From Candidatus Woesearchaeota archaeon (GTDB taxonomy: Archaea; Nanobdellota; Nanobdellia; Woesearchaeales; GCA-023898365): DNA of 64,000 nt. The DNA lies in assembly GCA_023898365.1 (NCBI GenBank), contig CP060219.1:737934-801933 (forward strand), in the 5' to 3' direction. Position 1 is the stretch's first letter, and every line of letters starts with the position of its first letter. The position numbers and the translations under genes were made by a program. Below the pieces are notes generated by a model, which was not told the origin of the DNA, ran no database searches, and worked only from the letters and a program-made list of their open reading frames with translations. Shown piece by piece: positions 3,698 to 45,656 of this stretch.

Positions 3698-4210
3698 TTA
3701 GCTGAGGATGAGGTTAAATGGTGCGGTGACAAGAACAACATACGCTCCGACAAACAGCACGCTTAGGGTTACAGGGATCCATCGTTTTTTGATAAACGAG
3801 CTGCAAAGAGCGCTGAGTAATGCTCCAAGAAGCGCCCAGCTACTTGAAAAGAACAGTTTACCCTTATAGTCTTGTTTTATGTTCTCAGGAAATGAAGAGG
3901 TGACTGTTTCTTCTTTGTTGTTGAGCACCATTTGTGTTTTGAGCTCATAGGTGCCAAAAGGAACTGCTCTTACGTTACACGTGGTGTGCAGGGTGACGCG
4001 ATCACCTGGTTCTAGACTTTCTTCGCCAAACGATTTGTCACAAAAGGTGCCTGCTACTTGTGCTGATGGTCGCAAGATAAGTTCTGCATCACCTTGTGCG
4101 CTGCGTAAAATGAAACTATCACAAAACGTCGTATTCGCAGATATGGTGCAGGCATAACTACTTGCGATCATGGCAAAGAAAAGCACGCCTGCAAGGAAGT
4201 ATTTCATCAT
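3698..4210 (-). CDS. Secreted/membrane-anchored hypothetical protein (signal peptide, C-terminal TM)
   Basis: MMKYFLAGVLFFAMIASSYAC signal peptide with lipobox-like SYAC; C-terminal hydrophobic helix. Confidence 0.5.
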   Translation of the reverse strand: MMKYFLAGVLFFAMIASSYACTISANTTFCDSFILRSAQGDAELILRPSAQVAGTFCDKSFGEESLEPGDRVTLHTTCNVRAVPFGTYELKTQMVLNNKEETVTSSFPENIKQDYKGKLFFSSSWALLGALLSALCSSFIKKRWIPVTLSVLFVGAYVVLVTAPFNLILS

Positions 4211-6153
4211 GCATACGGTATGCTGCTTGAAAGCTCTCCAAGACGAATGTCATCGTAGAGTTCCCTGATTGCATCGTAAATCATCATCCGTTCTTCTTTG
4301 TTAAACGGTGTCGATTCAAAAGATTCTTTGATAGCCATGTAATCTTTTTTTGCTTCATCAAAATTCTTTTCTTCTATTTTCTTTTTACAGGCATCAATAA
4401 GGGTAAAGAACTTGCTATGCTTAAACTCCATTTGCTTGGTGAATTTATCTTGTTTTCCAAATGGGTTGACTTCATCAATTTCGTCAAGTTTTTTCTCAAT
4501 GTATTTATGGAACCCAACTGTTTCGATATTCTTGCGCATATCGTCCATCTTCTTTTCTGCTTCTTTGATATAATCAAGAATTTCTTGTTCCTTTGCAAGA
4601 CTGAGACGAACTTGTTCTTCACGTTTACGCATGGATGCGTCGTGTTCTTGTTTATGTTTTTCAAACAAATCAGTTTTCTTTTCAAGCTCTCCAAGTTTTT
4701 GCGTGTATGCGGCTTGAAGTGAACGCAAGCGATCAGATTCTTTTTTAATTTCAAGTTCTTGCGCTGCTTTGAGTCGTTTTAGTGAAAGTGTTCCTTGTGA
4801 AAGAATGCCTTCTTGTTTTTTGATGTGTGCTGCTAATGCTGCTTTTTCTTTTTGATATGCGCGTTCATCATTTTGTAGTTTTGCAAGTCTGACTTCATAT
4901 GCCGTTTTTGTTTCTTGCGCTTCTTTAACTTTTGCTAGCATTGCAAGTCTTTCTTGTTCAAGTCGTTTTTCTTTTGTTTGTATAAGTTTTTCTTGCGTTT
5001 CAAGTGTCGCCATTTTTGACCGCACTTCTTTTTCTTTTGCTTCAAGGTCTGCTAGTTGCCTTTGCTTAAGCGCTCTAAACTCTTTTTCTTGGCGATGGGT
5101 TAATTCTCTCGCATGTTCTTCTTGATGAATAGTCTTATGGAGTTGCGCAAGTTCTTTCTTGTACAGATCATCTCCTTTTTTCGCAAGTAGCGTCAAGTAC
5201 GCGTCAAGCTCAGCTTTGAACTTCTTTACCGCTTGCTTTTCGTCTGTGTGTTTAATGCGAGACAGAAGGAATGCTTCTAATTCTTTTTTGCTGGTAAGTG
5301 CTCGTGCAAACGTTGGCGCACTCGTTTTTTCTAAAATTTTTAATGCGTCTTGTAATGATTTCGCTATGGTGCCATCTTGTTTGGTGAAAAGATTCCTTAT
5401 CTTTGTTTCAGGAGTTATTGTTTTGAGCGCTGCAATTGATTTTTTGTTTTTTGCTTGCAACTCTTTAAATGGATTTGGCGGTGCTTTTAGTGTTGTATGT
5501 TTTTTCACTATTTTTTTCTTAGCTCCTTTTTTAACGGCAACTTTTTTCTTCGCCACCTTTTTTTTGAGTTGCGTTTTCTTAATCGCTTTTTTCACGGCAA
5601 CTTTCTTTTTCGCAACTTTTTTCTTAAGAGGAACTTTCTTTACTGCTTTCTTCTGAGGAGCACTCACAATCTTCTTTTTTGCAATGTTTACTTTGAGTGG
5701 TTTTTTCATAACCACTTTCTTGTTTGCTTTTGTCGCCTTTTTTATTGCAGGTGACGTTTTCTTTTTTGCATCAATCGGTTTTGCTTTTGCCGCTTCACGT
5801 AATTTATCTAGTTTTCCAGTCTTTATTGTTTTTCGTAACTTCGCAATTTCATTTGGTTCAGAAGATGCCTTTTCAAATGAGCGAGAAATACTTACTGGTT
5901 TTTTTTCAGGAAGTTCAAGGGCTTCGCGGAGTTCATCAATGCTGACATCCGCGTTTTTTCCTTTAAAGAGTTTGTTGAAGAGGCCTGCTTTTTTTTCAGG
6001 AGTTTTTGTAGCGGGTTCAGGAGCACCTTTCCAAAACGAAGAACTATCTGCTTTTGTGCTGCTTTTTTCTTTAGTTGCAGTCTTTTTTGGTGGCTCGGGG
6101 ACACCAATTGTTTTCGGCCTACTTGGTGGTCTAATTATGTTTTCCTCAACCAT
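4207..6153 (-). CDS. Lys-rich coiled-coil protein with histone-H1-like (V/A)KKK tandem repeats
   Basis: 648 aa; N-terminal ~180 aa low-complexity K/A/V tract with a 21-aa repeat, then long heptad-rich coiled coil; ATG at 6153. Confidence 0.6.
   Translation of the reverse strand: MVEENIIRPPSRPKTIGVPEPPKKTATKEKSSTKADSSSFWKGAPEPATKTPEKKAGLFNKLFKGKNADVSIDELREALELPEKKPVSISRSFEKASSEPNEIAKLRKTIKTGKLDKLREAAKAKPIDAKKKTSPAIKKATKANKKVVMKKPLKVNIAKKKIVSAPQKKAVKKVPLKKKVAKKKVAVKKAIKKTQLKKKVAKKKVAVKKGAKKKIVKKHTTLKAPPNPFKELQAKNKKSIAALKTITPETKIRNLFTKQDGTIAKSLQDALKILEKTSAPTFARALTSKKELEAFLLSRIKHTDEKQAVKKFKAELDAYLTLLAKKGDDLYKKELAQLHKTIHQEEHARELTHRQEKEFRALKQRQLADLEAKEKEVRSKMATLETQEKLIQTKEKRLEQERLAMLAKVKEAQETKTAYEVRLAKLQNDERAYQKEKAALAAHIKKQEGILSQGTLSLKRLKAAQELEIKKESDRLRSLQAAYTQKLGELEKKTDLFEKHKQEHDASMRKREEQVRLSLAKEQEILDYIKEAEKKMDDMRKNIETVGFHKYIEKKLDEIDEVNPFGKQDKFTKQMEFKHSKFFTLIDACKKKIEEKNFDEAKKDYMAIKESFESTPFNKEERMMIYDAIRELYDDIRLGELSSSIPYA
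5497..5650. repeat. Imperfect ~63-nt tandem coding repeat (two copies) inside the Lys-rich gene
   Basis: acggcaactttt(t)tcttcgc(c/a)ac(c)tttttt... repeated; encodes IKKTQLKKKVAKKKVAVKKA twice on the minus strand. Confidence 0.6.
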
Positions 6154-6995: not shown

Positions 6996-7190
6996 ATGCC
7001 TGAGAAAGATGAAAACGAAGAAGCATTCGATGAACTTGATTCTGAAGAAGTTCAAGAAGCACTTGTCGAAGACGATGAAATAGATGGTGCTGAAGAAGGG
7101 GTTATCCGCGGTTATTACGAAGAGAAGAAAAAGAAAAAGGATGACAAACCCTCAAAAGGCGACCAAATGTACGAAGAATCGTTCGGTTGA
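6996..7190 (+). CDS. Small highly acidic protein
   Basis: 64 aa, Glu/Asp-rich; TATA attatataaatacc ~25 bp upstream of ATG (leaderless). Confidence 0.45.
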   Translation: MPEKDENEEAFDELDSEEVQEALVEDDEIDGAEEGVIRGYYEEKKKKKDDKPSKGDQMYEESFG

Positions 7191-7227: not shown

Positions 7228-8343
7228 TTACAAAGGAGCTAAGTCTCCTGCTGGAAGATTCTGCACGTATTCTCTTGGTTTGTTCTGTGGTTGCCTGTGA
7301 GGTGGTATGTCTTTTGATAGTCCATCTCGCGCCATTCTATATTTTATGAGGTGGTGCGAGAGTTCCAATGGTCTTGCACTTCTAAGTGTATTTATGATGT
7401 ATCCTTCTCCTTTCTTTTGAAGCACGCTAGGTCCTGAATGATAGAGTGCGATAAGTGCCTCGTCAAACGGAAGTCCTTCCACTCGCGAGAGTTTTTTCCC
7501 ATAGATGTTCATGAGATCTCGTATGTGAAGAAGTCCAACATAGCTACCAACGTCCGCATCTTTCCAAATGGCACTGCTCTGACTTCTTACAAGGTTTCTT
7601 CCAGGAAAACGTGCTGCTAGTTCTCTTTTGTGTTTTGCAACGGTGTTGTTCCAGGTTCTTGGAATCATTTGACTGATACTTTTCGCATTAGATTTTGGTG
7701 ATGCTGCCGTGCTTGAGTACCCTGATTCGATGCCGATCATTCCAAGATAGCTTTCGAGAGTAAATAATTGCTGTTGTTCTGGTGTTAACACTTCTTGATA
7801 ATTGTGGGCGAGTATGTCGCGGTGTTTGACAAAGTTTCTGTGAATGTGGGCTACTTTTATCTTTGTTGCTAAGCTGTACATGCTACTGAAGGCAAACACG
7901 TCGACAAATGCGGGTTGTACATTGCGCGTAATGAGGTTGAGTTGTTCATCGAGTGTGAGTGCTTTCGTGAGTTCTTCAGGCGGGGTGGTAGGAGTTGCTT
8001 GTTCTGGAACGGGGTCATTTTTTTCTTGACTCCATTGTTTAAACTTATCTGCTATGTCGCTTCCTTTTTCTCGTAATCGTTCAAGAAAGCTTCTTTCTTC
8101 TTTGGTGAGTTGATTTGCGGGGGAAATTGTTTGGGCTGCGACATTGTGTTGTTGGAGAAATTGTTTCTCTACTTTCTCTGACCAAGAGCCTTCTCTTTGC
8201 GGATACACCGTAATAGAATAGAGTAGTGCTGCAGTGGTAACTGTGGCTAGACTATAGGTTGCAACTGCCGATCTTCGTATTCGCTCAACAATATCCATAA
8301 CTACTCCATAGTGATTAATGATTTTTAAACATTTCGCTTTCAA
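7228..8343 (-). CDS. Membrane-anchored lytic-transglycosylase-like (SLT domain) protein
   Basis: N-terminal TM (VATYSLATVTTAALLYSITVY); C-terminal IGIESGYSSTAASPKSNAKSISQMIP ... ALYHSGP fits SLT motifs E-S / GLMQ / AYNAG. Confidence 0.5.
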   Translation of the reverse strand: MKAKCLKIINHYGVVMDIVERIRRSAVATYSLATVTTAALLYSITVYPQREGSWSEKVEKQFLQQHNVAAQTISPANQLTKEERSFLERLREKGSDIADKFKQWSQEKNDPVPEQATPTTPPEELTKALTLDEQLNLITRNVQPAFVDVFAFSSMYSLATKIKVAHIHRNFVKHRDILAHNYQEVLTPEQQQLFTLESYLGMIGIESGYSSTAASPKSNAKSISQMIPRTWNNTVAKHKRELAARFPGRNLVRSQSSAIWKDADVGSYVGLLHIRDLMNIYGKKLSRVEGLPFDEALIALYHSGPSVLQKKGEGYIINTLRSARPLELSHHLIKYRMARDGLSKDIPPHRQPQNKPREYVQNLPAGDLAPL

Positions 8344-8384
8344 AATCGAAATCTTTATATTGGTATACTCTTCAGTATATTGGT

Positions 8385-8523: not shown

Positions 8524-8820
8524 TTACAACGCCTTTCTCATTTCACTCATCAAAGAAGCAATTTTCTTACCTTTCTCTGTGAGCTTAAGCACCTTTAATC
8601 GTCCCGTCTTCTCAAAAGAGATAAGACCAAACGTTTCCATTTCCTTGAGAACTTTAACAACATGTGAATACGTGCAATCGACATTTTTAGCAAGAGAAGA
8701 TGCATAGGTTTCATTTGGTGAACTGAACAGCTCAATCAAAATCATTGCTGGCTTTTCACGGAAAAAAGTTGTGAATATCTTCTTATTGTCTTTCAAAATA
8801 TCTCCCCCCAAGGAAAACAA
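8524..8820 (-). CDS. Winged-helix transcriptional regulator (ArsR/TrmB-like)
   Basis: ...SSLAKNVDCTYSHVVKVLKEMETFGLISFEKTGRLKVLKLTEKGK helix-turn-helix + wing pattern; track start is TTG (8820); alternative ATG at 8745 gives 74 aa. Confidence 0.55.
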   Translation of the reverse strand: MFSLGGDILKDNKKIFTTFFREKPAMILIELFSSPNETYASSLAKNVDCTYSHVVKVLKEMETFGLISFEKTGRLKVLKLTEKGKKIASLMSEMRKAL

Positions 8821-8865: not shown

Positions 8866-9276
8866 TTACGCACCGAAGAGGCCCATATACGTCAATACAG
8901 CTCCGCCAACAGCGAACAAGTACGTGACGATGCTATTCACAAAATTAGGCAAGGAAAAGCCAATGATGCCCATAGTATGCAGTAAAGGAATGCCCCCAGC
9001 GATAACGAATACGAACCCAAGACCGAACGAAAGAATGGCTTCGGTACCGTGGAACTTTCCATTCTTTAAACCATCCCACACGAAGAGAAGAGCAGCAACA
9101 ACAAGCAAGATGTACGTGACCAAACCAGGCAAACTAGGTATTTTTACGGCGATCTTACCAAGGCCATCAGTGCCACTGCCAAGGATAGCAAGCACACTGT
9201 ACACTAACAAAATCAAACCCAAAATAACACTGATCCACTCATGTGGTGTATCAGCAAGACCTCTCTTATTTAACAT
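8866..9276 (-). CDS. Polytopic membrane protein (hypothetical)
   Basis: 136 aa, 4 hydrophobic helices; ATG at 9276; the + strand ORF 8771-9337 is antisense and rejected. Confidence 0.55.
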   Translation of the reverse strand: MLNKRGLADTPHEWISVILGLILLVYSVLAILGSGTDGLGKIAVKIPSLPGLVTYILLVVAALLFVWDGLKNGKFHGTEAILSFGLGFVFVIAGGIPLLHTMGIIGFSLPNFVNSIVTYLFAVGGAVLTYMGLFGA

Positions 9277-9304: not shown

Positions 9305-12300
9305 TTAGTCGAACTTGCCGTTGCGAAAGCGCATTGACCGAGCACGCTCAATAACATCCATTGGGTTGCCGCGAAGCTTTTTCTGCAACGCAGGACCAAT
9401 GTTTGACATGCCAATATGATCAGCACCTTGATAGCCATTAAGCATTTTTGTAATGACCGTAAACAAATATTTTGCAAGATTGTTAAAGTTTTGAATCGTT
9501 CCACCGTTTGCAACATTTTGCAATCCCTTCCTGATGGCCTCGTACAATCCGTACGCGTTGCCAAGATTTCTAAATAATGGTTGTCCTTTAGGAGACTTAG
9601 TTTGCAAGAATGCATCAACAAGAATAGCCCATTCAACAAGACTTGCTTTCGAAGTATCATCGAAAACAAACGATGCCTTTTGCATCTCGCGAAGCTTAGG
9701 TAAGATATCGTTTGCAAACGAAACAAATTCTTTTGGACCAACAAGAACTTCCGCAACGCCTTCTTCAGGAGGCTGAACTAGTTGTTCAAGAGGACTTGGA
9801 GGATGTTTTTCATCATCAGATGAAACCTCCTTACCCTCTCCAAGCTGCTTTACTTCTTGATGTTCCAGACGATGAACTTCCATGGCATACAACAAAATGA
9901 TGCTTATTTGAATCGTTTCAATCCAGAGCAATGTCACAGGTAATGATTCTACTATGTCAAGCAAAATAACAATTCTTTGTTGAGGATCTTGTTCATTTTG
10001 AAGACGTGCAAGACTTCTTTTTGAGGCAGAAAACATCTGCTGAGCCTCTTCTCGCGCTTCCTCGCCATACAAAGGTGATGTTGCGATAAGTTCAAGAACC
10101 CGCTGCAATTGGGTTTCCATATGGATTATACCATGAATAGTATTTTCAGCAAGCAAGCCTCCTTGTATTTGTGAGACAATCTGTTCCAAAGCAGTTCTTG
10201 TGTTTGCAATAAGTTGAGGTGAAAAGACTCTTTCGACTTCCTCTTTTCGCGTTACTAATGCGTTTTTGTCCAAACGTGCTTCAGGAAGTAGAAGAATTTG
10301 TCGTTCAAGCATGCCAAGTTGCAATCCAACACTTGTCGCAACATCTATAAATGCTCTGAGTTGCTTCGCTTTTCTCTTAGAAACCCACGTACGAACTGCT
10401 TCTTCTGTGTTTGCTGGTTTAAGCAAATTATTACTCTGCTTGATGATTTCCTTTGTTTTACCAGGAGGAAGAAGAAGTATGTCACTTGGACCTTCAGGAA
10501 GCAATAAACTTCCTTGAGATCTTAGCAAGAAGATTTGTTTAATGATACGAGGTAATGTTTTGAAGAATTCTGTGTTTTTTATTACTGTTTCAAGAGGGTC
10601 TTCCAGCACAACAAGAGCAGTACTCCTTAACTCTTCCGTAAGTTTTTCTTCTTGCTTGTTTTTTTCTTCAAGAAATTTTTCATACTCTTCAAGCCACTCT
10701 AAGATTTTATCAGCAAGCTCAAGAGCCTTTGTCTCAATTTCTTCAACTAAGGCACTCCACGTTAAGGTGGTTAAGAACTCGTGTTGTTCTCTTAGAGTCT
10801 TCTTTGCCGCATCATCCAGTTTAGAAAATTCAAAGACGAGTTGCAATCGTTCCTTTAATGAATTGCTACCTTCTTGAAGGAACTGTTTAAACAATGCAGC
10901 AGAACTATCTCTGTCCGCGTAGAAGCTCGATCTTTCTCGTTCATCAACGCTACCTTCTCGCACATCAAACCGAGAAATTTCTTTTCCGTACCGATCAACT
11001 AACACTTGTGCTTGCTTAAAAATTGCAAAACAGGTATAGAGCGCATCTTGGTTTAACCAACCAACAGTAGAATCCGCACCTTCAGTTTCTTTTGCTTTTT
11101 CAGAGAATTTCTTAACTAATTTCCTCCATAACTCAACGCGTTTAATGATTTGCGAAAGTGATTTTCCTTCAAGTTTATTTACTTCTTGAGACGAGCGAAC
11201 AAATTCTTTGAACTTTCTTTTGTCAATCTTTACTTTCTTAGGATCTTCTTTCTTTTTCTCGTTAAGCGCTTTTTTGATATGGTAACTAAGTGCTGTTATA
11301 GCTCTTCGTATCATAACAAGTCCTTCTTGGTGATCGATTATCTCGCCATAATGTGTTCTTGCCTGAATGATGAGTTCCTCTGCACTATCAATATCTTGCG
11401 CTTCAAGGAATGATGTTATTTTTGGAAGAAGATCTTGTTCGATGATGTTTCTTTGAGTCAATTGAACGTGTTCATATGTTTCAAGAACTGGTCCTATTTG
11501 TTGTTCTAATTCTTCAAGTTCTTCTTTCCAGGATTGGTATCTGCCATCCATTCGTGAGGGGTTGTCTTCAGGAATTTTTTCAAGCTGCTTTTGAACTGCA
11601 TTTAATTTCTCTGGAAGCGTACGCCAGTATTTTCCAAGTTCTCCAATCTTGTGAAGAATTATATTAATTTTATTAAGTAAATCTTCCTCTTTATTTATAG
11701 TATCGGGATCATCTGATGGGTTAGGTTCAGGAGGGGGTATAGGATCAGGATCTTGTTTTATTTTGTCAAGGATTTCTCTGAGTTGTGTTCGAATTTTTTC
11801 AAGCTCCTCATCCATCTTTGTTTTATGAGCTTCGTATTCATTTTTTAATTGTTTAACCTTATCATCAAGTGCTCGAACTGCTGCTTGTTGTTCTTCGCTT
11901 TTTTGTTCTAGAAGTTTTTTTATGCGTTCTTCCTGGGCGTCAACATATGCTTTTCCTTTTCGAGTAAGCTCTCCAATCGCATCATAAAGAGCTTTTTTGT
12001 ATACTGCTTGTAATTTGCGCAATGCATTTTTTTGCTTTTGGAGTTCTTCTTGCAAAGAAGTATTACTTTGTGCAATTGCATCTCGTAATTTTTCTTCAAG
12101 CGAAGCAAGTGCTTCCTGCATTTCTTGTTGCATGCGTTCTCGTTCACTTTGCATATCTTGTGTGAGTTCAAAGATTTTGTAATATAATTCTCTTCGGGTT
12201 AACTCTAACTCTGCTTTGAGTTCTTCAATCAGTTTTCTTAATTCTTCATTTTCTTCAGGAGTGCCACCGCCTTCTTGGAGTTTCTTGATAAGATCTTCTA

Positions 12301-12544
12301 ATTCCTTTATTTTTCTTTCATACACTTGAAGTTTATCAGCTAAGTCTTTATTTTGCTTTTCGAGACGATCGATAATATCTTGCCATTTCTTATCGTCTTC
12401 TGAGGAAGGAATTTTACCGCCGCCAGATCTCCAAGACTTGAATCCGCTGAAAATCGCCCAAATGATAAGGATGAAGAAAGATGTTTCTAAGAATGAGAGA
12501 ACGCCTTGAAAGATATTGATAAAAGTGATGCCGAATGTTGCCAT
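9305..12544 (-). CDS. Giant N-terminally membrane-anchored coiled-coil protein (1079 aa)
   Basis: N-terminal TM (FFILIIWAIFSGF) then >900 aa of heptad-rich E/K/L coiled coil and a Pro-rich linker; ATG 12544. Confidence 0.65.
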   Translation of the reverse strand: MATFGITFINIFQGVLSFLETSFFILIIWAIFSGFKSWRSGGGKIPSSEDDKKWQDIIDRLEKQNKDLADKLQVYERKIKELEDLIKKLQEGGGTPEENEELRKLIEELKAELELTRRELYYKIFELTQDMQSERERMQQEMQEALASLEEKLRDAIAQSNTSLQEELQKQKNALRKLQAVYKKALYDAIGELTRKGKAYVDAQEERIKKLLEQKSEEQQAAVRALDDKVKQLKNEYEAHKTKMDEELEKIRTQLREILDKIKQDPDPIPPPEPNPSDDPDTINKEEDLLNKINIILHKIGELGKYWRTLPEKLNAVQKQLEKIPEDNPSRMDGRYQSWKEELEELEQQIGPVLETYEHVQLTQRNIIEQDLLPKITSFLEAQDIDSAEELIIQARTHYGEIIDHQEGLVMIRRAITALSYHIKKALNEKKKEDPKKVKIDKRKFKEFVRSSQEVNKLEGKSLSQIIKRVELWRKLVKKFSEKAKETEGADSTVGWLNQDALYTCFAIFKQAQVLVDRYGKEISRFDVREGSVDERERSSFYADRDSSAALFKQFLQEGSNSLKERLQLVFEFSKLDDAAKKTLREQHEFLTTLTWSALVEEIETKALELADKILEWLEEYEKFLEEKNKQEEKLTEELRSTALVVLEDPLETVIKNTEFFKTLPRIIKQIFLLRSQGSLLLPEGPSDILLLPPGKTKEIIKQSNNLLKPANTEEAVRTWVSKRKAKQLRAFIDVATSVGLQLGMLERQILLLPEARLDKNALVTRKEEVERVFSPQLIANTRTALEQIVSQIQGGLLAENTIHGIIHMETQLQRVLELIATSPLYGEEAREEAQQMFSASKRSLARLQNEQDPQQRIVILLDIVESLPVTLLWIETIQISIILLYAMEVHRLEHQEVKQLGEGKEVSSDDEKHPPSPLEQLVQPPEEGVAEVLVGPKEFVSFANDILPKLREMQKASFVFDDTSKASLVEWAILVDAFLQTKSPKGQPLFRNLGNAYGLYEAIRKGLQNVANGGTIQNFNNLAKYLFTVITKMLNGYQGADHIGMSNIGPALQKKLRGNPMDVIERARSMRFRNGKFD

Positions 12545-12548
12545 TTCT

Positions 12549-13247
12549 TTAAACTCCTCCTAGGAACCCTTCAATGAGAGTAGTTGCAAACATGTCAAGG
12601 AAGTAGATAAAAATTAATCCTGCTATAACAACGAGAAGGCGCATGAACATAAGATAAAACGGATTTTGATTTTCAGTGGGAAGTTCCCTGAAGAAATAAT
12701 GAAACACCCCCCATGCGACGCCAAAAACTCCTGCCATAAGTATGATTAAGAACGGTAACAAACCTGCAAGAAAAACCGTTTGTACGGGCATAAGAACTGC
12801 TGTCATGAGCGCAAGAACAGCAGCAATGCCTCTTGCTTGTTTTTCTTTGCCTTGACCGAACAATTTAGTTGCGCCTAGTTCAAAGAGAAAGTACGTGAGA
12901 ACGAACAAGATAAGTCTAATGATGCCTTCTTTTGCTCGAGGATTTTGGAGCAATTCTCGAAGACTAAACACTTCACCAATACGAACAAACATTTTATCGG
13001 CAACACCAATGCCGCCACTATAATAACCGTAGTCGTTTTTTTGATAGTAGAAAAAGTTCGACGGATAGAAAACGACCGAGCTGGTTCCTTGCTCGTTGAC
13101 GTTCATCGTATCAGCATGAATATTAATTGTTGTTTCTTCATCTCCTAAGCCAACGACTCCTTGAAGCGAGAATACGAAGAAAAAGATCAATAGTGCGCTA
13201 ACCGCTAATAACACCACACGGTTTCCTTTCATCAAGCAAGAATGCAT
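12549..13247 (-). CDS. Membrane protein with signal peptide (hypothetical), cotranscribed with the giant coiled-coil gene
   Basis: 232 aa; N-terminal signal/TM, several C-terminal TM helices; 4-nt gap to downstream gene. Confidence 0.55.
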   Translation of the reverse strand: MHSCLMKGNRVVLLAVSALLIFFFVFSLQGVVGLGDEETTINIHADTMNVNEQGTSSVVFYPSNFFYYQKNDYGYYSGGIGVADKMFVRIGEVFSLRELLQNPRAKEGIIRLILFVLTYFLFELGATKLFGQGKEKQARGIAAVLALMTAVLMPVQTVFLAGLLPFLIILMAGVFGVAWGVFHYFFRELPTENQNPFYLMFMRLLVVIAGLIFIYFLDMFATTLIEGFLGGV

Positions 13248-14268: not shown

Positions 14269-14721
14269 ATGAGGTGTCCGTTTTGCGAAAGCGATGATAT
14301 TAAGGTTCTGGAGACGCGTGAGAGCGAAGATAATAAAACGCGAAGACGCAGAGAATGTTTGCGCTGCGCAAAACGATTTACCACCGAAGAACAAGTTATC
14401 AATGCGACCATGTTTGTGCAAAAAAAAGATGGTCGCCGAGAAGAATTTTCTCGCGAAAAACTTCTCAAAGGGGTTCTGATTGCTACAGGAAAACGCCCCA
14501 TTCCTCATGAAAAAATCATTCATCTTATTGAAGACACCGAAGCTCGTCTTCGCGAACTTAAAATTTCTGAAGTACCGAGTAAGCGTATTGGTCAAGAAGT
14601 GATTAAACGTCTCAAAAAACTTGACAAAATTGCGTATATTCGTTTTGCATCCGTCTATAAAGAATTAGACGTTGATGATCTTGAGAAAGAATTGGATAAA
14701 CTACGAGGAAAAGAACAATGA
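14269..14721 (+). CDS. nrdR: Transcriptional repressor NrdR (zinc ribbon + ATP-cone)
   Basis: MRCPFCESDDIKVLETRESEDNKTRRRRECLRCAKRFTTEE + ATP-cone (VQKKDGRREEFSREKLLKGV...); ATG at 14269 (track start 14263 is GTG); stop overlaps nrdJ start (ATGA). Confidence 0.9.
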   Translation: MRCPFCESDDIKVLETRESEDNKTRRRRECLRCAKRFTTEEQVINATMFVQKKDGRREEFSREKLLKGVLIATGKRPIPHEKIIHLIEDTEARLRELKISEVPSKRIGQEVIKRLKKLDKIAYIRFASVYKELDVDDLEKELDKLRGKEQ

Positions 14722-17700
14722 GCGGCATGACAGTTAAACGCATGTTTACCGAGAGCGGGAAAGACCCGCTTGGCACACTAACATTTGTAAAGGCAACAAG
14801 CGCCATTCGTGACCAGACAGGCAAAGAAATCTTCAAGAAAGAAAATGTCGAAGTACCTGACACGTGGTCGCAAGTCGCCATTGATATTCTCGCACAAAAG
14901 TATTTTCGCAAACAAGGCGTTCCCCAACGAGACGAACAGGGAAAGCCCCTGCTCAAAGATGGCAAGCCCATTCTTGGCAGTGAATCCAGCATGAAACAAG
15001 TTGCGCATCGTATGGCTTATACGTGGCGATATTGGGGGGAAAAACATGGATACTTTGCCTCTCCCGAAGATGCGCAAACTTTTTATGATGAAATGCTCTA
15101 TGTGCTTTCAAACCAAATTGCCGTTCCTAATTCTCCGCAATGGTTTAATACAGGATTAAATGCAGTTTATGGTATAACTCGTCCACCGCAAGGACATTAC
15201 TATGTTGAACCAGAATCAGGCGAAGTAAAACTTTCGGAAGATGCGTACACGCATCCACAACCTCATGCATGTTTTATTCAATCAGTAAAGGACGATTTAG
15301 TCAATGAAGGAGGAATTTTTGATCTCTTAACGCGAGAAGCACGTGTCTTCAAATATGGTAGTGGTTCCGGAACAAACTTTTCTTCTCTTCGTGGAGAAAC
15401 AGAACCGCTTTCTGGCGGAGGAAAATCAAGCGGCTTAATGTCCTTTTTGAAAGTCTTTGACGCAAGTGCTGGTGCCATCAAAAGCGGAGGCACAACACGG
15501 CGCGCTGCAAAAATGGTCACGCTTGATATTGATCATCCAGAAATTGAAAACTTTATCGAATGGAAAGCGCGAGAAGAAAAGAAGGTTGCCATGCTCGTTG
15601 CAGGAAGTCACGCGGTCAAGAACCTACTTGATGATGTCATGCGAATTGCTTACGAAACAAAATCAACCTCACTCAAAGAAAACGAACGTTTGAAACGAGC
15701 AGTCTTACAAGCGCTTAAAGCAAACGTTTCCCCAAACTATGTGCAGCGCGCACTCTATCTTGTCGAACAAGGCTATAAGTCGATGGACTTGTTTTATCTC
15801 ACCTCAGAATTTGAAAGCGAAGCCTATCAGACGGTTTCAGGTCAGAATTCAAACAATTCTGTCATGGTCACGAATGATTTTCTGAAGGCAGTTGAACAGG
15901 ACGAATCTTGGAAACTTATTCGAAGAACTGATGGCTCGGTGTGCAAAGTTATTCCTGCAAGAGACTTGTGGCAAAAAATCGCACTTGCTGCTTGGCACTC
16001 AGCTGATCCAGGCATCCAATTTCGTGACACCCTTAACGAATGGCATACTTGTCCAAATGATGGACCGATCAATGGATCAAATCCTTGCAGCGAGTATGTA
16101 TTCTTAGATGACACTGCGTGCAATTTGGCATCAATAAATTTGATGAAATTTTACGACGGCAAACAATTCAATGTTGATGCATTTCGTCACACCGTCAGAC
16201 TCATGACTGTTGTGCTCGAAATATCTGTGCTGATGGCACAATTTGCAAGTAAGGAACTCGCAAGGAAGAGTTTTGATTTTCGCACGCTCGGACTTGGCTT
16301 TGCAAACCTTGGCACTCTCCTGATGGTTCAAGGAATTCCGTATGATTCCACAAAAGGCCGATCATTTGCAGGAGCAATAGCGGCAATTATGACGGGAACA
16401 GCGTACGCGACAAGCGCAGCCCTAGCAGCACATCTCGGGCCCTTCCCTCGCTATTCGCAAAACAAGGATTCTATGCTTCGTGTTATTCGCAACCACCGAC
16501 GTGCAGCATACGATGATCCTGATGAATCCTATGAAGAGCTTACTATTACTCCCCAAGGTTTGCACCATGAAGAACTTGATAAGGCTCTTTCTGTTGCGGC
16601 AAAAAAATCTTGGGATGAAGCGCTCCAACTTGGAGAAAAATATGGTTATCGAAATGCACAGACCACGCTTATTGCACCAACGGGCACTATTGGTCTTGTG
16701 ATGGATTGTGACACGACAGGTGTTGAGCCAGACTTTGCCTTGGTGAAATTTAAGAAGCTTGCTGGCGGCGGCTATTTCAAAATTATTAATCAGAGCGTTC
16801 CTCGAGCACTTCAACACCTTGGCTATTCGTCTGAACAAATTCAAGACATTGAAAAGTATGCAACTGGTCATGGGACGATGAAGGGTTGTCCGCATATTAA
16901 TGAAACCACGTTAAGTGAGAAGGGCGTTCCAAAACCGGTTATCAAAAATATTGAAGCACAACTGAAAAACACGTTCGATATAAATTTTGTTTTTAACAAA
17001 TTCACCCTTGGTGAAGAGGTGTGTATTGATCTTGGTTTTACTAAAGATCAACTTGCTGACCCTTCATTAAAGATGCTTGAAGCGCTTGGCTTTTCTCGAA
17101 AAGAAGTAGCGCAAGCAAATGAATACATTTGTGGCTCGATGACCATCGAAGGGGCGCCTCATCTCAAGGAAGAACATTACGCTGTTTTTGACACGGCAAA
17201 TAAATGCGGCAAGAAAGGAACGCGCTTTATCAGTTATCTTGGTCATATCAAGATGATGGGTGCGGTGCAACCATTTTTGAGCGGCTCAATTAGCAAGACC
17301 ATCAACATGGAAAAAGAAGCTTCTATTTCTGATGTAAAAGAAGCGTACTTGACCAGTTGGAAACAAATGATTAAGGCAATTGCGTTGTATCGCGATGGTT
17401 CAAAATTAAGTCAACCACTGAATACGTCAAGTGAAGATGATGAAGAATTACTCTATCTTTTGGATGCTGCAAAGCAAATGCCCGACATTCCCGAACCCGA
17501 AGAAAAAATGGTATTTGCCTCAAAGCAGAAAATGCCAAAGCGACGAGGTGGTTTTGTTCAGGAAGCGGTTGTTGGTGGTCAGAAAATATTTTTGCGAACA
17601 GGAGAATATCCTGATGGTCGCTTGGGAGAAATTTTCATTGACACCTATAAAGAAGGCGCATCTTACGGCGCGCTCCTTAATTGCTTTGCGATAGCAATTT

Positions 17701-18101
17701 CGAAAGCATTGCAACATGGCGTTCCGTTAGAAGAATTTGTTGATGCCTTTACGTTTACTCGCTTTGAACCTGCAGGTGCGGTGCTTGGCCATGACGCGAT
17801 TAAACAGGCCACTTCGATTCTCGACTATGTCTTTCGTGTGCTTGGTTATGAGTATTTAGGACGCAAAGACTTCGTTCATGTGAAGTCAATGGAAACTGCT
17901 GATAAGAAGGAAAAACTTGCCGAGGAAAAACGTGAACTTCCTTCTGAAAAACAGATTCGCATTACTGACACAAAGGTTTTTGAAGCAAGAGCTAAAGGGT
18001 ATACGGGAGAACAATGCACGCAGTGCGGTAGTATGCGCGTCAAACAAAACGGCTCGTGTAGTTTATGTGAAGATTGCGGTACGACAACAGGTTGCAGTTA
18101 A
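14718..18101 (+). CDS. nrdJ: Class II adenosylcobalamin-dependent ribonucleotide reductase, long (~1100 aa) NrdJ type
   Basis: 1127 aa; N-term ...VEVPDTWSQVAIDILAQKYFRK..., C-terminal Cys-rich tail CTQCGSMRVKQNGSCSLCEDCG; no HN[CST] intein signature seen. Confidence 0.9.
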   Translation: MSGMTVKRMFTESGKDPLGTLTFVKATSAIRDQTGKEIFKKENVEVPDTWSQVAIDILAQKYFRKQGVPQRDEQGKPLLKDGKPILGSESSMKQVAHRMAYTWRYWGEKHGYFASPEDAQTFYDEMLYVLSNQIAVPNSPQWFNTGLNAVYGITRPPQGHYYVEPESGEVKLSEDAYTHPQPHACFIQSVKDDLVNEGGIFDLLTREARVFKYGSGSGTNFSSLRGETEPLSGGGKSSGLMSFLKVFDASAGAIKSGGTTRRAAKMVTLDIDHPEIENFIEWKAREEKKVAMLVAGSHAVKNLLDDVMRIAYETKSTSLKENERLKRAVLQALKANVSPNYVQRALYLVEQGYKSMDLFYLTSEFESEAYQTVSGQNSNNSVMVTNDFLKAVEQDESWKLIRRTDGSVCKVIPARDLWQKIALAAWHSADPGIQFRDTLNEWHTCPNDGPINGSNPCSEYVFLDDTACNLASINLMKFYDGKQFNVDAFRHTVRLMTVVLEISVLMAQFASKELARKSFDFRTLGLGFANLGTLLMVQGIPYDSTKGRSFAGAIAAIMTGTAYATSAALAAHLGPFPRYSQNKDSMLRVIRNHRRAAYDDPDESYEELTITPQGLHHEELDKALSVAAKKSWDEALQLGEKYGYRNAQTTLIAPTGTIGLVMDCDTTGVEPDFALVKFKKLAGGGYFKIINQSVPRALQHLGYSSEQIQDIEKYATGHGTMKGCPHINETTLSEKGVPKPVIKNIEAQLKNTFDINFVFNKFTLGEEVCIDLGFTKDQLADPSLKMLEALGFSRKEVAQANEYICGSMTIEGAPHLKEEHYAVFDTANKCGKKGTRFISYLGHIKMMGAVQPFLSGSISKTINMEKEASISDVKEAYLTSWKQMIKAIALYRDGSKLSQPLNTSSEDDEELLYLLDAAKQMPDIPEPEEKMVFASKQKMPKRRGGFVQEAVVGGQKIFLRTGEYPDGRLGEIFIDTYKEGASYGALLNCFAIAISKALQHGVPLEEFVDAFTFTRFEPAGAVLGHDAIKQATSILDYVFRVLGYEYLGRKDFVHVKSMETADKKEKLAEEKRELPSEKQIRITDTKVFEARAKGYTGEQCTQCGSMRVKQNGSCSLCEDCGTTTGCS

Positions 18102-18885: not shown

Positions 18886-19016
18886 TGACGATCACCCCCC
18901 AATTTGATCTATTTCAGTTGTGATATTCGCTGATAAATACTTTCTCAATATAGAAATAAAACAAATTATGTGGTATATTCTAAATATTTATAAGTATGAA
19001 AGCATATACTTTTTGT

Positions 19017-19982
19017 ATGGAATATCGAAAGCTCATCAAATTCGGGAAAAACAGTTTTGTTATCTCTCTTCCTAAATCTTGGATTGAAAAAAACCATTTG
19101 AAAAAATCAGACCTTCTCTACCTAGCAGTTGAAAGTGACCAACTGGTTATTACGCCAGAACCAAAGACTGGAATGAATGAAGAACGAGAATTATCTGTTG
19201 ATGTCGATCGAGTAGTTCCAGGATCGTTGCGTCGTCGATTAAAAAGTTCTTATATTGATAATTATCATGTCATTACTTTTTTTGGAAAAACAATTCCTCA
19301 ACAAGCAGATCATATTCGAGAAGAAGTTAATGATCTAATGGCACTTGAAATTGTTGAACAAACACCAACGAAAATTGTTGCAAAGAATTATTTGAACATG
19401 AATGAGATTTCGTTATCTGAAACCTTGCGAAAAGTTGACAATATCTTGCGATATGAATTTGTAATTCTTAAAAATATTCTAACTAAAAAAATTGAGGGAA
19501 CAAAGGAAGATGTTATCAAAGAAGCCTATCGCATGGATGGAGATATTAATCGCCTCATGTTTCTCTTACTTCGCACGGTAAAGTTTTTAAGCAACACGGC
19601 AGAAATTAGCAGAGGAAAAAATGTCATCAACAATGAAGACTTGTTACGTATTTGGATGCTGATTAGTGTACTTGAAAAAATTGGTGACGAACTAAAGCGA
19701 CTCATAAAAAAACTCATTTCTGCTAAACAACTCGTAAAGGAAAAAGACCTATTGTTTATTGTAGATCAGATTGAAGATGCGTTCAAGCAAGCAATGAAGA
19801 GCTTTTATTTGAAAGATGTCGAACTCGCCTTTAAAGTTTCAGAAGATAATAAAGTGCGATTGAAAAAACTCATTCTTGATTTTTTAGAAAAAAACACTTC
19901 AAATGTTTTTGTTGCTTCAATGAGGGAAAATTTTGTCAATCTCTATTATAATATTGTCGAAATTCCTCGTCTACAATATTAG
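19017..19982 (+). CDS. AbrB/SpoVT-domain + PhoU-like regulator (archaeal PhoU-family)
   Basis: MEYRKLIKFGKNSFVISLPKSWIEKNHL swapped-hairpin N-terminus followed by helical PhoU-like repeats; TATA atatttataa ~25 bp upstream of ATG 19017 (leaderless); track start 18996. Confidence 0.65.
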   Translation: MEYRKLIKFGKNSFVISLPKSWIEKNHLKKSDLLYLAVESDQLVITPEPKTGMNEERELSVDVDRVVPGSLRRRLKSSYIDNYHVITFFGKTIPQQADHIREEVNDLMALEIVEQTPTKIVAKNYLNMNEISLSETLRKVDNILRYEFVILKNILTKKIEGTKEDVIKEAYRMDGDINRLMFLLLRTVKFLSNTAEISRGKNVINNEDLLRIWMLISVLEKIGDELKRLIKKLISAKQLVKEKDLLFIVDQIEDAFKQAMKSFYLKDVELAFKVSEDNKVRLKKLILDFLEKNTSNVFVASMRENFVNLYYNIVEIPRLQY

Positions 19983-24940: not shown

Positions 24941-26209
24941 ATGAAATACGCATTTATGGTTGTACTATTAAGTTTATTTGTTCTGGCGTCATGTACGACA
25001 CAGCAAATTGGGAACACTGACAGTGCCATTACGGGCAACATCGTTCTTGATGAGAATAATAACTTTGTTCTTATTGTAGATAATGGAACAGACACGGGCA
25101 ACCAGTCCGATGTCCCAAGCGGAGTTGATGATCAAGATCAATCCGATACCTCGCAAAATACTGGTCAAGATGATGGCGCGTCATTTGATCCTGACAACTC
25201 TCCTTCAAAGCAATATTACTCAGAGATTATTGTAACGGAAGGAGATCTTGTTGAGTTTTCTCCAGAAGTTATCGATCCCGACGGTGACGACATTTCGATA
25301 ACGTTTTCTGCTCCTCTCTCCGAGGATGGTGTTTGGCAAACCAACATTGGCGATGCAGGAACGTATGAAGTTGAGATGACTGCATCAGACGGTCTTCTTG
25401 TTTCAAAAGAACTTGTGCTCTTAGTTGTTGAACGAATGAATCGTGCGCCAACCATTGAATGTGACACGGTGCAATACGCGAAAGAAGGTGAAGCCCATTC
25501 TCTTGGTTGTAAGATTTACGACGTTGAGGGAGATGAGTTTACTGTTTCGTATGAAGGATTTCGCAGTGAAGCATTCTTCACGCCAACATTTACTGAGGCG
25601 GGTGAACAGCTCATTGTTGTTCGCGCAACCGACAGCTTCAACCAAGAAAATGAAGTTGCCATTACCTTGTTTGTCGAAGATGTGAATCGTGAACCTCTTG
25701 TCTACTTTGAAAGTCCAGAACTTACTGTTTTGGAAGGTGATCTTGTGACCATTCCCGTAACGGTTGCTGATCCTGATGGTGAAGATGTATCAGTATCGTA
25801 CTCAACTCCTTTTAGTCAGGATGGAACGTGGCAAACAGGAGAAGGCGATGCAGGAACGTATGTAGTTACCGTTTCAGCATTTGACGGTGTGATGACCTCA
25901 GAACGTGAGATCTCGGTTATTGTTTCAGCTCGAAACGAACCTCCTGCCTTGCTTATTGGTGACACCGAAATCATCGTTGAGGAAGGAGATCTTATCACTC
26001 TAGATGTCAGCGCTTTTGATCCTGAAGATGAAGAAGTGACGTTGACGGTGAGTGGATGGATGAACGAACTTTCTTACCAGACAACTTTCACTGATGCTGG
26101 CGAGTACGAAGTATATGTTACCGCATCTGATGGTGAGAAAGAGACAACGGCAACTGTTTTGGTAACCGTACTCAACGTGAATCGACCACCGGTCTTTGTC
26201 CAAGGCTAA
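24941..26209 (+). CDS. Secreted lipoprotein with four tandem Ig-like (He_PIG/cadherin-like) repeats
   Basis: Signal MKYAFMVVLLSLFVLASC (lipobox LASC); ~90-aa repeat EGDLV.F...DPDGDD.S.S.S.P.S.DG.WQT..GDAGTY.V...ASDG x4; ATG 24941 with GGTGA 6 nt upstream (track start 24932 is TTG). Confidence 0.7.
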   Translation: MKYAFMVVLLSLFVLASCTTQQIGNTDSAITGNIVLDENNNFVLIVDNGTDTGNQSDVPSGVDDQDQSDTSQNTGQDDGASFDPDNSPSKQYYSEIIVTEGDLVEFSPEVIDPDGDDISITFSAPLSEDGVWQTNIGDAGTYEVEMTASDGLLVSKELVLLVVERMNRAPTIECDTVQYAKEGEAHSLGCKIYDVEGDEFTVSYEGFRSEAFFTPTFTEAGEQLIVVRATDSFNQENEVAITLFVEDVNREPLVYFESPELTVLEGDLVTIPVTVADPDGEDVSVSYSTPFSQDGTWQTGEGDAGTYVVTVSAFDGVMTSEREISVIVSARNEPPALLIGDTEIIVEEGDLITLDVSAFDPEDEEVTLTVSGWMNELSYQTTFTDAGEYEVYVTASDGEKETTATVLVTVLNVNRPPVFVQG

Positions 26210-32023: not shown

Positions 32024-33238
32024 ATGGCAAAAAGAAAGAGAGGGGAGTTGGTAAAGGTTTGGGAGTATGATGCGAAAGCTCCTCTCTTGTCTGCACCAAC
32101 ACCTGCTGTTCTCAATGATACGCGTGGCGTGATTATTGCAACTGCTGATGGTCATGTTCAGTTTGTTGACAAAGATGGAAAGCTCGTCTGGTCTTTTGCG
32201 GCTGTTGCGAAGGTTTCTGCGCAGGAAAGCATGTTTCTTGAGCAAGAAAAAGTGAATGCGATTATTGGCCCTCCTATTGTTGTTGATGTTAACGCTGATG
32301 GCAGTCCTGAAATAATTTTTGGCACTGAGCACGGCATGTTATACACGCTTGATTCTGATGGAAAAAAACTTTGGGAGTTTGCAGCAAAAGGACCGATCAG
32401 ATCGTCGCCTCTTGCTACTGATCTTACTGGTGATGAAGGATTAGAAATTGTGTTCGGTTCTTCAGATAAGCATTTATACATATTAACAAATGAAGGAAAG
32501 CTCATCTCTCGCTACGCATATGATGTGGGAATTGAATCAACGCCTGCACGCATCGGAAGACAAATCATATTTGGAGATAATGATGGCGTCGTTCATTCTC
32601 TTGGACCGAAAGGAGAAGATAATTGGACGTTTGAAACCGGAGCGCGCATCGTAACCGAACCTCTTATTGTGCGTTTGCTCGATGACGAGTTCTACGTTCT
32701 TGTCGCTTCAACAAACGGCATTCTTTTCGCACTACATCTTTCCGGCGATTTGCTTTGGAAATTTGAAACGGGTGGTGCTATTATTGGACAACCAGTAGTT
32801 CACGATCTTGATGGTGATGGCAAACCAGAAATTGTTGTGGGCTCGTGTGATAATTTTGTCTACGCAATTAGAAATAATGGCGATTTGTATTGGTCGTACG
32901 AAACCAATTTTTGGATAGCGTCCTCTCCCATTGTTAAAGATCTTGATGGTGATGGCACGCCGGAAGTTATCGCGGGAAGTTACGATCATCATATTTATGT
33001 GCTTGCAACCGAAGGAAATTATAATTTAGATTATGTTCCCGGTATTGCAGGGGTAGTCAATCAAGCATCCTATTATTCGGAAGTCATGACTGACGAACCT
33101 GGCACGATGGTTGCAAAGCTTATTTGGAAGTATAAAACCGAAGGCATGTTGGTTGGTGGCGTGTTTCTGCCCTATAACCATAATTTGGTAATGGCTTCAA
33201 AAAACGGTATAGTTACGGTGCTTGCGCATCGTGAATGA
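32024..33238 (+). CDS. Beta-propeller repeat protein (PQQ-like / FG-GAP-like DxDGDG repeats), no obvious signal peptide
   Basis: Repeated ~40-aa units with D.DGDG.PEI(V/I)(F/V)G and (L/F)(Y/W)..(T/S)G; ATG 32024 with GGTGA 9 nt upstream (track start is GTG 32009). Confidence 0.6.
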   Translation: MAKRKRGELVKVWEYDAKAPLLSAPTPAVLNDTRGVIIATADGHVQFVDKDGKLVWSFAAVAKVSAQESMFLEQEKVNAIIGPPIVVDVNADGSPEIIFGTEHGMLYTLDSDGKKLWEFAAKGPIRSSPLATDLTGDEGLEIVFGSSDKHLYILTNEGKLISRYAYDVGIESTPARIGRQIIFGDNDGVVHSLGPKGEDNWTFETGARIVTEPLIVRLLDDEFYVLVASTNGILFALHLSGDLLWKFETGGAIIGQPVVHDLDGDGKPEIVVGSCDNFVYAIRNNGDLYWSYETNFWIASSPIVKDLDGDGTPEVIAGSYDHHIYVLATEGNYNLDYVPGIAGVVNQASYYSEVMTDEPGTMVAKLIWKYKTEGMLVGGVFLPYNHNLVMASKNGIVTVLAHRE

Positions 33239-45595: not shown

Positions 45596-45656
45596 GTTTC
45601 TTAACTGGTCACGTCGATTCGTAAGGTTTATAATATCTGTTTGTTTTATTGGATGT

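Follow-up and report, generated by a model that had tools for sequence, protein, structure and literature searches.

A gene on the minus strand of a 64,000-nucleotide stretch of a Candidatus Woesearchaeota archaeon genome (assembly GCA_023898365.1, contig CP060219.1, positions 737,934 to 801,933; hereafter the window) encodes a protein whose C-terminal half is very probably a true homolog of SLT/GH23 lytic transglycosylases. PHROG profiles, HHalign, AlphaFold2 (AF2) modeling and Foldseek delimit the domain (window positions 7378..7878, minus strand; residues ~156-322), and its closest family is the phage/prophage clade typified by the phiKZ endolysin gp144, not the Slt70-type enzymes. The explanation we favor, with a probability of roughly 0.55, is that this is an exported or surface-tethered protein whose gp144-type domain cuts bacterial peptidoglycan. 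From its N-terminus it would comprise a weak signal or anchor, a helical, charged stalk with a linker rich in Pro and Thr, and a highly divergent SLT/GH23 domain. Where two cells meet, this domain would bind bacterial peptidoglycan and cleave its MurNAc-beta-1,4-GlcNAc strands, with Glu206 as the sole general acid/base, a mechanism common to family-1 lytic transglycosylases. The archaeon could in this way attach to a bacterial host, prey or competitor, get access to it or lyse it. Bacterial peptidoglycan is the proposed target because the archaeon makes no murein. Residue numbers refer to the maximal open reading frame (ORF) of 371 amino acids (aa); subtracting 15 gives the position in the 356-aa protein that is most likely made.

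The link to SLT domains is significant only via phage-family profiles; a standard Pfam search misses the domain. Among the pre-built PHROG phage profiles, phrog_4067 ("transglycosylase") matched residues 156-245 (E=7e-6), and phrog_3201, a giant tail-fiber family, matched residues 197-238 (E=2e-5). Across 50,697 phage genomes, tblastn returned 30 weak matches, all of them (30/30) in transglycosylase, tape-measure, tail-fiber or internal virion proteins. Weak similarity was likewise seen by tblastn to a 2236-aa Phikzvirus "tail fiber", which probably belongs to the phrog_3201-type proteins. The matched region lay inside the PF01464 domain in three of the four phage proteins checked, and in all four pairwise alignments G-I-E-S-G...S-x-A...Q...T-W of the query paired with E-S-G...S-x-A-x-G-L-x-Q-F...T-W of the phage protein.

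A profile made from the query and four phage domains recovered 443 proteins that bridge the query to characterized enzymes. They are phage or prophage proteins of ~230 aa, some of them named "transglycosylase SLT domain-containing protein" or "putative endolysin". We left the query out and built a hidden Markov model (HMM) from 120 members of this set. This query-free model scored the query at 33.3 bits, compared with 8.8 bits for the best of 5000 shuffles and 4.3 bits for the highest-scoring of 476 further real ORFs, taken from the window and from two other loci, which places the motif resemblance noted in an earlier, sequence-only reading of this DNA beyond chance. HHalign, run with the query as a single sequence against the family alignment without it, gave 95.7% probability (E=9.5e-9) over 113 columns (residues 199-321); homology therefore covers the whole catalytic domain, not a single motif. 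The bridging-family profile in turn matched the solved phiKZ gp144 structures (3BKH/3BKV, 9XPS) at E=2e-30 and E. coli MltE at E=1.6e-4. The family-1 SLT assignment made in the sequence-only reading thus stands as far as homology and retention of the Glu-Ser pair are concerned, and shifts in its detail, the nearest clade being of gp144 type and not of Slt70 type.

Bridging-family proteins P0003-P0122 themselves score only 16-24 bits against PF01464, and much of the gp144-type phage/prophage clade lies at or under the Pfam threshold for that family. Many of these proteins are encoded on contigs of ~42-47 kb and begin almost directly at the E-S motif.

The predicted fold is compatible with this assignment. 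An AF2 model of residues 131-371, computed with the family alignment as its multiple sequence alignment (MSA), reached a predicted template modeling score (pTM) of 0.72 and a core predicted local distance difference test (pLDDT) of ~87-94. This high-pLDDT core includes helices upstream of the E-S motif, a region where the alignment suggests that most MSA rows have no coverage. Structure prediction had been proposed as a check on the SLT assignment, and the top 43 Foldseek matches of this MSA-guided model in the Protein Data Bank (PDB) were all lytic transglycosylases: the gp144 catalytic domain came first, and MltE, MltC, Slt70, MltF, Cj0843 and the phi6 lysin followed. Against BFVD, the top matches were jumbo-phage endolysins (E=1e-5), LT_GEWL proteins and PRD1 P7.

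The three motifs on which the sequence-only reading had relied occur in the order described, as I-E206-S207-G-Y, S222-I-S-Q225-M-I-P and Y301-H-S-G-P305. Alignments place the predicted catalytic acid in the pair Glu206-Ser207 (7723..7728, minus strand, as are all features of this gene; Glu191-Ser192 in the 356-aa protein), with residue roles taken from PMC5406664. Glu206 aligns with gp144 Glu115, Slt70 Glu478 and MltE Glu64 (the Slt70 numbering was checked), and the column is invariant in 121 of 121 aligned sequences, including all 120 nearest-family members; conservation of this residue, on which the earlier assignment had been made to depend, is therefore complete. Motif II, SPKSNAKSISQMIPRTW (7651..7701), is the counterpart of the family pattern S-x-A-x-G-L-x-Q-F-x-x-x-T-W and of Slt70 SPVGASGLMQIMPGT. 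Its beginning reads S218-N-A220-K-S222-I-S-Q225, in which the Ser, Ala and Gln are kept and Leu is replaced by Ile, and the string SISQMIPRT resembles GLMQIMPGT of Slt70. Motif III, DADVGSYVGLLHI (7522..7560), corresponds to Slt70 DPETNINIGTSYL and to the family DP...M..AY and is partly conserved, with Ala263 in place of Pro and His273 in place of Tyr. Motif IV, LYHSGP (7429..7446), corresponds to the family Y-L-A-H-F-x-G-P, with matches at His302, Gly304 and Pro305; in its spacing it also resembles A-Y-N-A-G-P, the classical motif of Slt70-type enzymes. A sequence check locates Slt70 Tyr597 in the C-terminal helix GYVKNVLAYDAYY rather than in the AYNAG motif, and GEGYIINTL of the query resembles RGYVKNVL of that helix, by inspection only. 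The query shares 23 of the 67 family columns that are at least 85% conserved, and the residues retained include Glu206, Ser207, Ser218, Ala220, Gln225, Thr230, Trp231, His302, Gly304 and Pro305. Catalytic competence appears plausible.

Outside the catalytic domain, the layout would suit a protein displayed at the cell surface. Near the N-terminus, RIRR precedes a Ser/Thr/Ala-rich segment of 23 residues, SAVATYSLATVTTAALLYSITVY (8203..8271), which is helical in the low-confidence single-sequence model and reaches a Kyte-Doolittle maximum of 1.38. It fits a putative signal for secretion of Sec or Tat type, or a weak signal-anchor, rather than a clear transmembrane helix, so that of the N-terminal membrane anchor claimed earlier the hydrophobic segment remains and a clear membrane span does not. 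The segment is followed by a charged helical stalk or linker (7954..8202) that has no family match and contains a Pro/Thr-rich stretch, DPVPEQATPTTPPEE (7972-8016). This RR-plus-hydrophobic N-terminus and the Pro/Thr linker are compatible with predicted export. At the other end, a Pro/Gln-rich C-terminal tail (7231..7326) is predicted to be disordered (pLDDT <50).

The ORF is uninterrupted from 8343 to 7228, and its maximal 371-aa form begins at a TTG. The most likely coding sequence is 7228..8298 (356 aa; stop codon 7228-7230 included), as called alike in the NCBI record and in an independent Logan assembly of SRR12358676, with an ATG at 8298. This ATG is the better-supported start, because a possible ribosome-binding site, GGAG (8304..8307, 6-9 nt upstream), and a TATA-like box, TTTAAAAA (8322..8329, 24-31 nt upstream), precede it, and because the TTG would be only ~10 nt from a second TATA-like box, ATATAAAG (8353..8360); all three are elements predicted from the DNA. 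The public record of the product reads [quoted passage not shown], on a 1.13 Mb contig.

Several observations weigh against a peptidoglycan-cutting enzyme. The whole protein has no SLT match in Pfam (even at E<=10), NCBIfam or the PDB sequences, and a PADLOC search gave none either. The isolated domain has PF01464 as its top Pfam match, covering the right block (profile positions 20-58), but at 13.2-13.5 bits (E ~0.05-0.07) it stays under the gathering threshold of 21.3 bits. The sequence-only reading had named the lack of a significant SLT HMM hit as grounds for dropping the assignment, and taken literally this is what the PF01464 search returned; for a protein so divergent that yardstick is too strict, and homology is real by other profiles. 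As to the fold, the single-sequence AlphaFold model is useless (pLDDT 35), the Foldseek E-values against the PDB are modest (best 3e-3) with TM scores of 0.4-0.56, and the match is partly circular because the AF2 model was guided by an SLT-family MSA. The N-terminal segment is just weakly hydrophobic, which makes export putative, and no recognizable peptidoglycan-binding module was found in the protein. Homologs beyond the protein itself were not found in a word index of 5.8 billion clusters, queried with the full protein and with the domain alone, and because no collection searched holds a homolog, neither conservation nor purifying selection can be shown. Finally, the query departs from the gp144-type family at three of its 100% invariant columns, with Ser222 for the Gly of motif II, Leu277 for an Asn and Ala299 in the gp144 Tyr197 column, and because of these replacements activity could be reduced, altered or lost.

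The replaced residues also speak for an alternative that we consider unlikely, namely that a catalytically degenerate SLT domain serves as a glycan-binding adhesin, holding on to peptidoglycan or another GlcNAc polymer of a partner cell without cutting it. The lost column is that of gp144 Tyr197, which takes part in catalysis (PMC5406664); just about a third of the strongly conserved family columns are shared; and attachment to partner cells is a need of DPANN archaea (PMC8204110). However, the Glu-Ser pair of the active site is intact, as is most of motif II, and a single Glu is the main catalytic requirement in GH23 enzymes. Tyr301 moreover stands only two residues beyond the lost Tyr column, at a spacing from G-P that matches the classical A-Y-N-A-G-P.

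Cutting by a GH23-type activity on something other than peptidoglycan is improbable. Chitin or chito-oligosaccharides could then be the substrate, scavenged for their amino sugars, as could pseudomurein, an S-layer glycan or another glycan made by an archaeal host. GH23 includes chitinases and goose-type lysozymes, and the Foldseek list holds gp144 and MltE complexes with chito-oligosaccharides and, at lower rank, a GH19 chitinase. Nonetheless, the closest relatives in sequence and fold are all peptidoglycan-specific phage or bacterial enzymes, no chitin-use genes were seen among the neighbors, and pseudomurein, with its beta-1,3 linkage to N-acetyltalosaminuronic acid, resists lysozyme-type enzymes. 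An archaeal partner would be in line with the hosts of cultivated DPANN archaea as described in PMC8204110.

Slightly less probable again is decay or chance: the gene would be the degenerating remains of DNA from a phage or bacterium, or else its frame would be spurious or non-functional, with a motif resemblance that serves no present purpose. Its complete orphan status, its sub-threshold Pfam score and the loss of several invariant residues would all agree with decay. Against this, the frame of 356 codons is unbroken and preceded by a plausible promoter and ribosome-binding site, the GC content is host-like, the neighbors carry no prophage signature, and the domain is homologous from end to end with its functionally key residues kept. 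The orphan status itself extends to the adjacent 1079-aa protein, which has no relatives in metagenome contigs, and this points to a poorly sampled lineage rather than decay.

An exhaustive phmmer run over 1.84 billion representatives returned the protein itself and one artefact, and scans at the DNA level of IMG/VR viral contigs and JGI metagenome contigs gave no protein homolog. Synteny followed via the class II ribonucleotide reductase neighbor retrieved just two distant loci, neither with an SLT-like ORF. The artefact (P0002, E=2e-4) was rejected as a homolog, being a weak 29-residue match multiplied ~20x in a tandem-repeat, tape-measure-like protein. P0002 has 1230 aa and ~20 exact tandem copies of the 24-aa unit AAGIADVQSAIEGIPDDEAVITLK; repeat proteins of this kind can give spurious HMMER matches.

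A VirB1-like or pilus-associated "space-making" enzyme of a DNA-transfer, secretion or surface-appendage apparatus, the other role put forward in the sequence-only reading, is very improbable: specialized lytic transglycosylases do accompany bacterial type IV and type III secretion systems and flagella, as is generally known, and a HerA/DUF87 ATPase is present in the window, but the archaeon itself lacks murein that such an enzyme would have to open, the neighbors are housekeeping genes and orphan proteins, and within ~10 kb we found no VirB4/VirD4/TraG-like ATPase, pilin, relaxase or integrase, nor other transfer or secretion genes. The HerA/DUF87 gene (58625-60583, plus strand) lies ~50 kb from the SLT-like gene, too far for a linked transfer apparatus.

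The gene sits in an ordinary archaeal chromosome. The source, annotated as a Candidatus Woesearchaeota metagenome-assembled genome (MAG), is borne out as archaeal by the genes for RpoE'/Rpb7, Spt4, S24e, S27e, DUF357 and CDC48 nearby. Contamination or mis-binning was considered and rejected, given these archaeal information-processing genes on the same contig, and so was a provirus or mobile-element context, with no integrase or relaxase seen nearby and a host-like GC content. A PHROG search of the neighbors gave nothing meaningful beyond a generic winged helix-turn-helix (wHTH) regulator and a weak coiled-coil match.

How an enzyme of this type came to be there can be outlined tentatively. 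Acquisition from a phage or bacterial gene pool is the economical reading and a plausible one, because all detectable distant relatives are of phage or bacterial origin. The bacterial descent proposed in the sequence-only reading is plausible to this extent; with no close homologs and a gene GC content of 0.435, near the 0.411 of the window, a donor cannot be named, and any transfer would not be recent. A more specific scenario is possible but doubtful: a lineage-specific, fast-evolving anti-bacterial or host-access lysin, acquired from the pool of phage gp144-type endolysins and diverged past the reach of Pfam and CAZy censuses. Were it true, the peptidoglycan-degrading arsenals of archaea, and especially of DPANN, would be systematically under-counted, and the small soluble domain would offer a tractable reagent for finding the bacteria targeted by an uncultured archaeon.

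Among known systems, phiKZ gp144 is the closest in type. It belongs with jumbo-phage endolysins, T7 gp16-like internal virion proteins, tape-measure SLT domains and the ~230-aa "transglycosylase SLT domain-containing protein" group, and the query has in common with them the blocks h-h-G-h-E-S-G, S-x-A-x-(G/S)-(L/I)-x-Q-x-I-x-x-T-W, D-(P/A)...(M/V/G)... and H-x-(x)-G-P. Identity to this type is ~20-30%, and the invariant Gly, Asn and Tyr197-column residues are those replaced in the query. gp144 is a phage protein with an N-terminal PG_binding_1 domain, whereas the query is encoded on an archaeal chromosome and has a putative signal or anchor and a stalk instead. The family-1 bacterial lytic transglycosylases (E. 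coli Slt70, MltE/EmtA, MltC and MltF; PF01464, GH23) are of the same fold class as the query model. Pairwise similarity to MltE is not significant (E=0.68), and the query lacks both the superhelical domains of Slt70 and the lipoprotein anchor.

A murein-cutting enzyme in an archaeon is a genomic marker of interaction with bacteria, whether attachment, predation or competition, because archaea make no murein. For Woesearchaeota and Pacearchaeota this concept is already known, and the SLT-like gene opens no new question. Reports of lytic murein transglycosylases in these lineages go back to Rinke 2013 and Castelle 2015, both cited in PMC8204110, where the proteins are discussed as extracellular, large (up to ~3000 aa) and possibly able to bind or degrade the walls of bacteria; they have also been presented as evidence of predatory lifestyles (PMC9723730). 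A weapon against bacterial neighbors or hosts, as the sequence-only reading also suggested, therefore agrees with published views of the lineage and is the most plausible role for the protein described here. With the large DPANN enzymes (fam00969, PMC8204110) the query shares host lineage, enzyme superfamily and a proposed role at the bacterial wall. As described, fam00969 is set apart from it by being widespread, up to ~3000 aa long and detectable with Pfam and CAZy, whereas the query is a small (356-aa), Pfam-invisible orphan of gp144 type for which neither a paralog nor an ortholog was detected.

For peptidoglycan hydrolases of other classes from archaea, killing of bacteria has been demonstrated (PMC12352652). 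Those of Halogranum salarium, of M23 type (PMC12352652), and the GH25 muramidase of Aciduliprofundum boonei, experimentally validated as cited in PMC12352652, offer the same picture as proposed for the query, that of an archaeon devoid of murein with a secreted and probably horizontally acquired murein-degrading enzyme. They differ in being an M23 peptidase and a GH25 muramidase rather than a GH23 lytic transglycosylase type, and in carrying peptidoglycan-binding domains and having clear bacterial sister clades, neither of which applies to the query. The present gene adds that such enzymes can be small and too divergent for standard annotation, and that this archaeal example has its relatives in the phage phiKZ gp144 type. 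Should it be active, its 356 aa would make expression simpler than for the giant DPANN proteins, and its lytic spectrum could point to the bacterial partners or prey of this uncultured archaeon.

On the side of its 3' end, the gene is followed by a 64-aa acidic ORF, DUF357, an orphan Lys-rich coiled-coil protein and the DHH/DHHA1 and PIN genes, and further on by RpoE'/Rpb7, Spt4, S24e, S27e, PUA and transketolase. The 64-aa ORF (6996-7190, plus strand) converges on the 3' end of the SLT-like gene, is Asp/Glu-rich with a Lys run, has no family match and is also called as a gene in the source assembly. The Lys-rich protein (4207-6153, minus strand; 648 aa) has an extremely Lys-rich N-terminal half with repeat units like "KKVAKKKVAVKK" and, after it, a coiled coil; no family matches it, and it could be a nucleic-acid-binding or surface protein.

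On the other side lie the wHTH regulator (8524-8820), a 136-aa predicted membrane protein (8866-9276), the orphan 1079-aa coiled-coil protein, RibD_C and the class II ribonucleotide reductase. The 1079-aa protein (9305-12544, minus strand) has a hydrophobic N-terminus and a very long Glu/Lys-rich coiled coil, without a Pfam family. Its gene is tightly packed with a 232-aa ORF (12549-13247), the predicted membrane protein and the regulator, the whole group being on the minus strand just upstream of the SLT-like gene. The ribonucleotide reductase (B12-dependent; 14718-18101, plus strand; locus L006) carries a C-terminal TSCPD domain, and the best match to it in species-representative genomes shares 58% identity and lies on a contig labeled as a "Bradyrhizobiaceae bacterium" MAG, which suggests mis-binning or inter-domain transfer.

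Elsewhere in the window, all on the plus strand, a PKD/Big_9 domain protein and an FG-GAP/PQQ-like beta-propeller (24941-26209 and 32024-33238, in that order) are likely secreted or surface-located and add to the candidates for a part in cell-cell interaction in this DPANN genome. An 880-aa PIN-PhoH fusion (42953-45595) overlaps at its 3' end, by ~100 nt, the maximal ORF of a 962-aa subtilase (Peptidase_S8; 45498-48386), the true start of which is probably further downstream. A 328-aa protein (18996-19982) combines a MazE/AbrB-type antitoxin domain with a weak PhoU domain.

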